From assembly GCF_024502345.1 (NCBI RefSeq), contig NZ_JALDNN010000001.1: a DNA stretch of 64,000 bases, one strand, 5' to 3'. The stretch comes from Escherichia coli (GTDB taxonomy: Bacteria > Pseudomonadota > Gammaproteobacteria > Enterobacterales > Enterobacteriaceae). The position numbers and the translations under genes were made by a program. The first letter of the stretch is position 1; the number at the start of each line of letters is the position of its first letter. Of this stretch, positions 28,396-28,413 are shown one piece after another. The notes under the pieces were generated by a model. That model made no database searches, was not told the DNA's origin, and saw only the letters and a program-made list of their open reading frames with translations.

Positions 28396-28413
28396 TGTTT
28401 AATTTACTAAACA
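28396..28413. promoter_or_regulatory. Putative NadR operator at nadB
   Basis: TGTTTA-N6-TAAACA palindrome (TGTTTAatttacTAAACA), matching the NadR box consensus, immediately upstream of the nadB start. Confidence 0.45.

Follow-up and report, generated by a model that had tools for sequence, protein, structure and literature searches.

The nadB locus

The window considered here, i.e. the whole 64 kb stretch of Escherichia coli DNA that was analysed, carries nadB, the gene for L-aspartate oxidase, on its minus strand. The ATG start codon of nadB occupies positions 28389 to 28387, and the encoded protein is recognised by the Pfam family FAD_binding_2 (E = 2.8e-108). In the RefSeq annotation the gene order is srmB, trmN and nadB, followed by the divergently oriented rseD-rpoE-rseA-rseB cluster, and the intergenic region between the divergent nadB and rseD-rpoE units measures 255 bp. 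The segment from 26700 to 29400 is 100% identical to that of E. coli strain ABWA45 and finds a match in 5425 of 5426 complete E. coli genomes.

Directly in front of nadB an 18-bp palindrome, TGTTTAATTTACTAAACA, can be read from the sequence. On the nadB strand the region takes the form TGTTTAGTAAATTAAACA-AAGAAA-ATG, the box extending from -24 (first base) to -7 (last base) relative to the start codon and being separated from it by the six bases at 28390-28395. A TAA triplet inside the box lies in frame with nadB and therefore precludes a start of the nadB reading frame farther upstream. The positions of the palindrome and of the other features treated below are compiled in Table 1.

Table 1. 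Features of the nadB gene and its upstream region, in coordinates of the 64 kb window
Feature	Position	Strand	Basis
nadB (L-aspartate oxidase, 540 aa)	26767..28389	-	ORF, RefSeq annotation (100% identity), Pfam
Predicted 28-nt A/U-rich nadB leader without Shine-Dalgarno sequence	28390..28417	-	predicted start site
Primary NadR operator	28396..28413		12/12 consensus match; half-sites invariant in 79/79 other species
Predicted nadB transcription start, a conserved A, 7th nt after the hexamer	28417	-	prediction; the pncB start obeys the same rule
Predicted extended -10, TGC-TATGCT (TGCTATGCT)	28424..28432 (hexamer 28424-28429)	-	TGnTAnnnT conservation; putative function
Weak -35-like GTGTTT, 18-nt spacer; A-tract just upstream (about 28460-28463)	28448..28453	-	weak, putative
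Distal NadR-like site, TGTTTAGCCACTGTAACA on the nadB strand (TGTTACAGTGGCTAAACA in the window)	28470..28487		2 mismatches; strong left half, degenerate right half

Uniqueness and conservation of the palindrome

When the palindrome is compared with the motif TGTTTA-N6-TAAACA, all 12 of the 12 specified bases are identical, which bears out the original prediction that such a motif precedes the nadB start at a distance of a few bases. The exact motif is present once in the window, as opposed to an expectation of 0.02 copies derived from dinucleotide-preserving shuffles, only 2 of 100 of which contained at least one match. If up to two mismatches are allowed, the number of matches rises to nine, with 2.0 expected. 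Seven of these, at 15595, 32980, 33820, 48638, 51179, 53512 and 54972, are located outside the nadB-rpoE spacer; they were considered as further operators and rejected as chance occurrences, all of them residing inside long ORFs, where the excess of near-matches is probably due to composition or codon effects rather than to operators.

When one genome per species was scanned with NadB, 80 Enterobacteriaceae loci were obtained, whose NadB identity amounts to 83-97% and whose genera include Escherichia, Citrobacter, Enterobacter, Klebsiella/Raoultella, Kluyvera, Lelliottia, Buttiauxella, Cedecea, Kosakonia, Pluralibacter and Mangrovibacter. The exact TGTTTA-N6-TAAACA motif stands directly before the nadB ATG in each of the 79 other loci for which upstream sequence is available. 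In the alignment every column of the box is conserved to at least 90%, whereas the bases on both sides fall below that value. The gap between box and ATG varies from 2 to 8 nt among the 80 sequences, with a mode of 6, and amounts to 2 nt in 12 species. Even within E. coli the two bases immediately upstream of the box (28414-28415) differ, reading GG in the window, CA in MG1655 and AG in a third strain, the latter also featuring a gap of 4 instead of 6 nt, while the box itself is unchanged.

Conservation is not confined to the half-sites, as the N6 spacer (28402-28407) reads GTAAAT in 75 of the 80 sequences and GTACAT in four. An extended NadR motif, TGTTTAGTA, partly explains this constancy, to which other constraints may contribute; TGTTTAG is common to nadA, niaP and both nadB sites, and the published niaP site of Proteus, TGTTTAGTATACTAAACA, constitutes a perfect 18-bp palindrome (PMC2330245).

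NadR as the cognate regulator

NadR is a trifunctional protein: besides acting as a repressor, it has NMN adenylyltransferase and ribosylnicotinamide kinase activities. Accordingly, Pfam assigns to the MG1655 protein the domains HTH_3 (residues 7-59), CTP_transf_like (cytidylyltransferase-like) and AAA_28. Its gene, which lies outside the window, is found in 5424 of the 5426 complete E. coli genomes.

The operator consensus of NadR, for which a model of an NadR-NAD dimer has been put forward, is TGTTTA-N6-TAAACA; the form of NadR that bears the helix-turn-helix domain is confined to enterobacteria, and nadB belongs to the genes repressed by it (PMC2330246, PMC2330245). A comparative-genomics survey likewise places nadB in the NadR regulon (PMC5343134). 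Moreover, in a 2025 study of Salmonella both EMSA and ChIP-qPCR showed that NadR binds at the nadB promoter, and deletion of nadR raised the level of nadB mRNA 8-10-fold (PMC12421817). Enterobacterial NadR operators, termed NAD boxes, have been assigned to nadB, nadA-pnuC and pncB by Penfound & Foster 1999 and Gerasimova & Gelfand 2005, as cited in PMC2330246.

The original prediction had named NadR as the regulator, and this assignment is upheld by the consensus together with the listing of nadB in the regulon (PMC2330246, PMC2330245, PMC5343134), by the binding observed in Salmonella (PMC12421817) and by the occurrence of the box in 79 of 79 further genomes. The site is the known NadR operator of nadB itself, an ordinary regulatory element that has already been described: it shares the 18-bp palindrome, the target pathway and the regulator with the known enterobacterial NAD boxes and differs from them in no respect. 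In other bacteria NiaR, NrtR and NadQ follow the same logic of feedback repression of nadB/nadA, but these proteins, their operator motifs and their effectors are unrelated to those of NadR (PMC2330245, PMC2330246, PMC5343134).

The corresponding operators of E. coli MG1655 deviate from the consensus by one mismatch each; the box of nadA, at -90, reads TGTTTAGCATATAAAACA, and that of pncB, at -47, reads TGTTTATTGTACTAAACG. Among the three E. coli operators the nadB box is thus the only perfect 12/12 copy, and with its first base at -24 it is also the one nearest to its start codon. A comparison with several boxes at the nadA promoter had been envisaged; at up to three mismatches, E. coli nadA shows a single one. 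Downstream of this NadR box, about -45 to -15 from the ATG, MG1655 nadA contains an inverted repeat, GTTTTA-N12-TAAAAC within GGTTTTAACGTTAAGCCTGTAAAACG, whose N12 is unlike the N6 of the consensus.

A predicted extended -10 promoter and its proposed repression

Upstream of the operator the sequence TGnTAnnnT is present in 78 of the 80 loci, the distance to the box being 10 nt in 64 of them, 11 nt in 13 and 9 nt in one. The TG at -15/-14 as well as T-12, A-11 and T-7 are invariant, and the middle of the hexamer varies (TATGCT, TATTCT, TATGGT, TACTCT and others). Conservation of this kind is characteristic of extended -10 promoters. In the -35-like element, nGTGnn, the core GTG is conserved at no less than 80-90%, and the upstream run of A residues is conserved too. 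A strict sigma-70 promoter and terminator scan of positions 28300-28850, the criteria of which demand a good -35 element, returned no promoter, since the -35 element is poor, as it is in an extended -10 promoter.

The transcription start of nadB is predicted near 28417, which corresponds to about 2710392 in MG1655, from the position of the hexamer. For pncB a start site has been mapped at -58, with TATACT as -10 hexamer (Mendoza-Vargas 2009 supplement). This start is exactly the seventh nucleotide after the hexamer; hence, the rule applied to nadB works on a promoter of the NadR regulon. In addition, the pncB box occupies +12 to +29 and thus sets a precedent for a NadR operator placed shortly after the start site. 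A mapped nadB start found no match in the supplements of Ettwiller 2016 and in part of Kim 2012, and nadB is absent from the start sites of the Shigella M90T start-site paper and of the Mendoza-Vargas 2009 supplement; full-text literature searches, aimed at the sequence of the site or at an account of the nadB promoter, gave nothing useful.

With its start at 28417, transcription would begin approximately 4 nt in front of the operator, which would thereby be placed at about +5 to +22. The following mechanism is proposed on this basis. When NAD is plentiful, the N-terminal helix-turn-helix domain of NadR would bind both half-sites, TGTTTA and TAAACA. As the predicted nadB promoter is of the sigma-70 extended -10 type and its start is placed near 28417, the operator would fall within DNA that has to be covered by RNA polymerase, and bound NadR would block polymerase binding, open-complex formation or promoter escape in the manner of LacI at lac O1. 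It is highly probable that the box acts as the NadR operator of the nadB promoter; NAD-NadR, bound at about +5 to +22, would obstruct RNA polymerase. The operator reading as such draws on sequence, conservation, the presence of NadR in the species and the literature; the position of the start site, and with it the exact steric mechanism, we infer.

The lac system offers a close parallel, as its main operator O1 lies just downstream of +1, where the nadB box is predicted to lie. It is centred at +11, and the predicted centre of the nadB box is about +13.5. The repressor families of the two systems differ, however. A block of RNA polymerase similar to that at lac O1, and not a translational block, is the most likely mode of repression. 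The original prediction had left a choice between a very short leader, repression by occlusion of the translation-initiation region and occlusion of the promoter. The conserved extended -10 element, 10 nt in front of the box, favours promoter occlusion. For a repressor that binds double-stranded DNA, on the contrary, it is implausible to act by covering the translation-initiation region, and the leader, which would comprise about 28 nt, is short but probably not "very short".

In the predicted leader the operator accounts for 18 of the 28 nt and sits where a Shine-Dalgarno sequence would be expected. As judged by the energy of the duplex with the anti-Shine-Dalgarno sequence, no Shine-Dalgarno sequence precedes nadB in any of the 80 loci: the duplex energy is -0.9 kcal/mol in the window, with a median of +0.6 over the 80 species, as compared to -4.2 to -8.5 kcal/mol at the neighbouring genes rpoE, rseB and rseC.

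A distal NadR-like half-site

Apart from the primary operator, TGTTACAGTGGCTAAACA is the only non-coding near-match (up to two mismatches) within the window. At a distance of 72-75 bp on the upstream side of the primary box, all 80 sequences contain a GTTTAG half, the background in the same loci being 0.53 per kb, and the best distal match lies 73-75 bp upstream in 73 of the 80. Its right half is degenerate, the number of mismatches across the sequences amounting to 2-4 overall. Assignments of the distal site to CRP or to a sigma-54 promoter were considered and dropped, the half-sites and spacing fitting neither by eye.

The spacing of 73-74 bp between primary and distal site corresponds to about 7.0 helical turns, and by analogy with lac O3 the distal site may serve as an auxiliary operator or half-operator. 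The weaker upstream site of lac lies on the same face of the DNA as O1, as would the candidate distal nadB site at 74 bp (about 7.0 turns) relative to the nadB box; on the other hand, the distal nadB site features only one good half-site, and looping and bridging by NadR are hypothetical there. It is conceivable, albeit tentative, that nadB is subject to two-site repression, in which NadR oligomers would bridge the operator and the distal (T)GTTTAG by means of a DNA loop, and, separately, that the same 18 bp are constrained both as operator and as translation-initiation region. Neither the distal half-site nor such a dual role was described in the literature searched, a body that did not include the primary footprinting paper (Penfound & Foster 1999).

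Alternative readings of the box

The arrangement of box and start codon also permits a different placement of the promoter. If the nadB promoter were to use TAAATT within the operator spacer as its -10 hexamer, the mRNA would start 0-7 nt before the ATG, and NadR would repress by covering the -10 element. TAnnnT is indeed present in the spacer on the nadB strand in 79 of the 80 sequences, nadB is devoid of a Shine-Dalgarno sequence in every species, and in the 12 species whose gap is 2 nt the start would coincide with the A of the ATG or adjoin it. However, TAAATT is neither extended by TG nor accompanied by a -35 element, and a gap of 2-8 nt (mode 6) would mostly give rise to untranslated stubs of 5 nt, which are neither leaderless nor canonical. 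Moreover, such a promoter would not account for the TGnTAnnnT that is strongly conserved 10 nt ahead of the box, and this placement is accordingly judged improbable. With regard to a leaderless nadB mRNA, the E. coli sequence argues against it, given the 6-nt gap and the predicted, conserved promoter 34 nt ahead of the start codon; where the gap shrinks to 2 nt, as in 12 species, a leaderless transcript is possible.

Another reading concerns the divergent rseD-rpoE unit. A distal start site of rpoE may lie in the vicinity of the box. The divergent nadB and rseD-rpoE genes share the 255-bp intergenic region, TACTAA and TAATTT hexamers are contained in the spacer on the plus (rpoE) strand of the box, and of the six promoters reported for rpoE some are distal (PMC6358824). 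Either the box or the distal half-site might additionally serve the rseD-rpoE unit, for instance by overlapping a distal rpoE promoter, a function that would be compatible with the role at nadB. Yet the latter fully accounts for the conservation of the box, no report of NadR-dependent rpoE regulation was found in the literature searched, and we regard this additional function as unlikely. Towards rseD-rpoE, the intergenic region contains a moderately conserved block at 28534-28555, GGATTAGGTGGTGAAATAAAAA on the plus strand, which reaches 70-90% conservation in parts and probably belongs to the upstream regulation of rpoE.

A function of the palindrome mainly as an RNA hairpin that controls translation or stability in the nadB leader is scarcely credible: if transcribed, the palindrome could fold immediately ahead of the start codon into a hairpin with an A/U stem of 6 bp and a loop of 6 nt, but the leader folds no better than shuffled sequences (z = -0.2, with 81 of 200 shuffles doing equally well) and lacks an Rfam match, both arms are invariant and show no compensatory changes, as is the case for base-specific recognition by a protein, the same motif is positioned elsewhere at nadA and pncB, and loss of repression upon deletion of nadR has been reported for Salmonella (PMC12421817).

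Implications for the control of NAD synthesis

Taken as the NadR operator of nadB, the site does not extend what is known of the NadR regulon. As modest by-products, the comparative analysis provides a genomic model of the nadB promoter, encompassing an extended -10 element, an operator at approximately +5 to +22 and a leader without Shine-Dalgarno sequence, as well as a conserved and phased distal half-site that is a candidate auxiliary operator. The distal half-site and the leader devoid of a Shine-Dalgarno sequence are the sole points that might merit a small follow-up. The site itself constitutes a classical feedback switch, through which NAD acts at nadB to repress the de novo pathway of its own synthesis.
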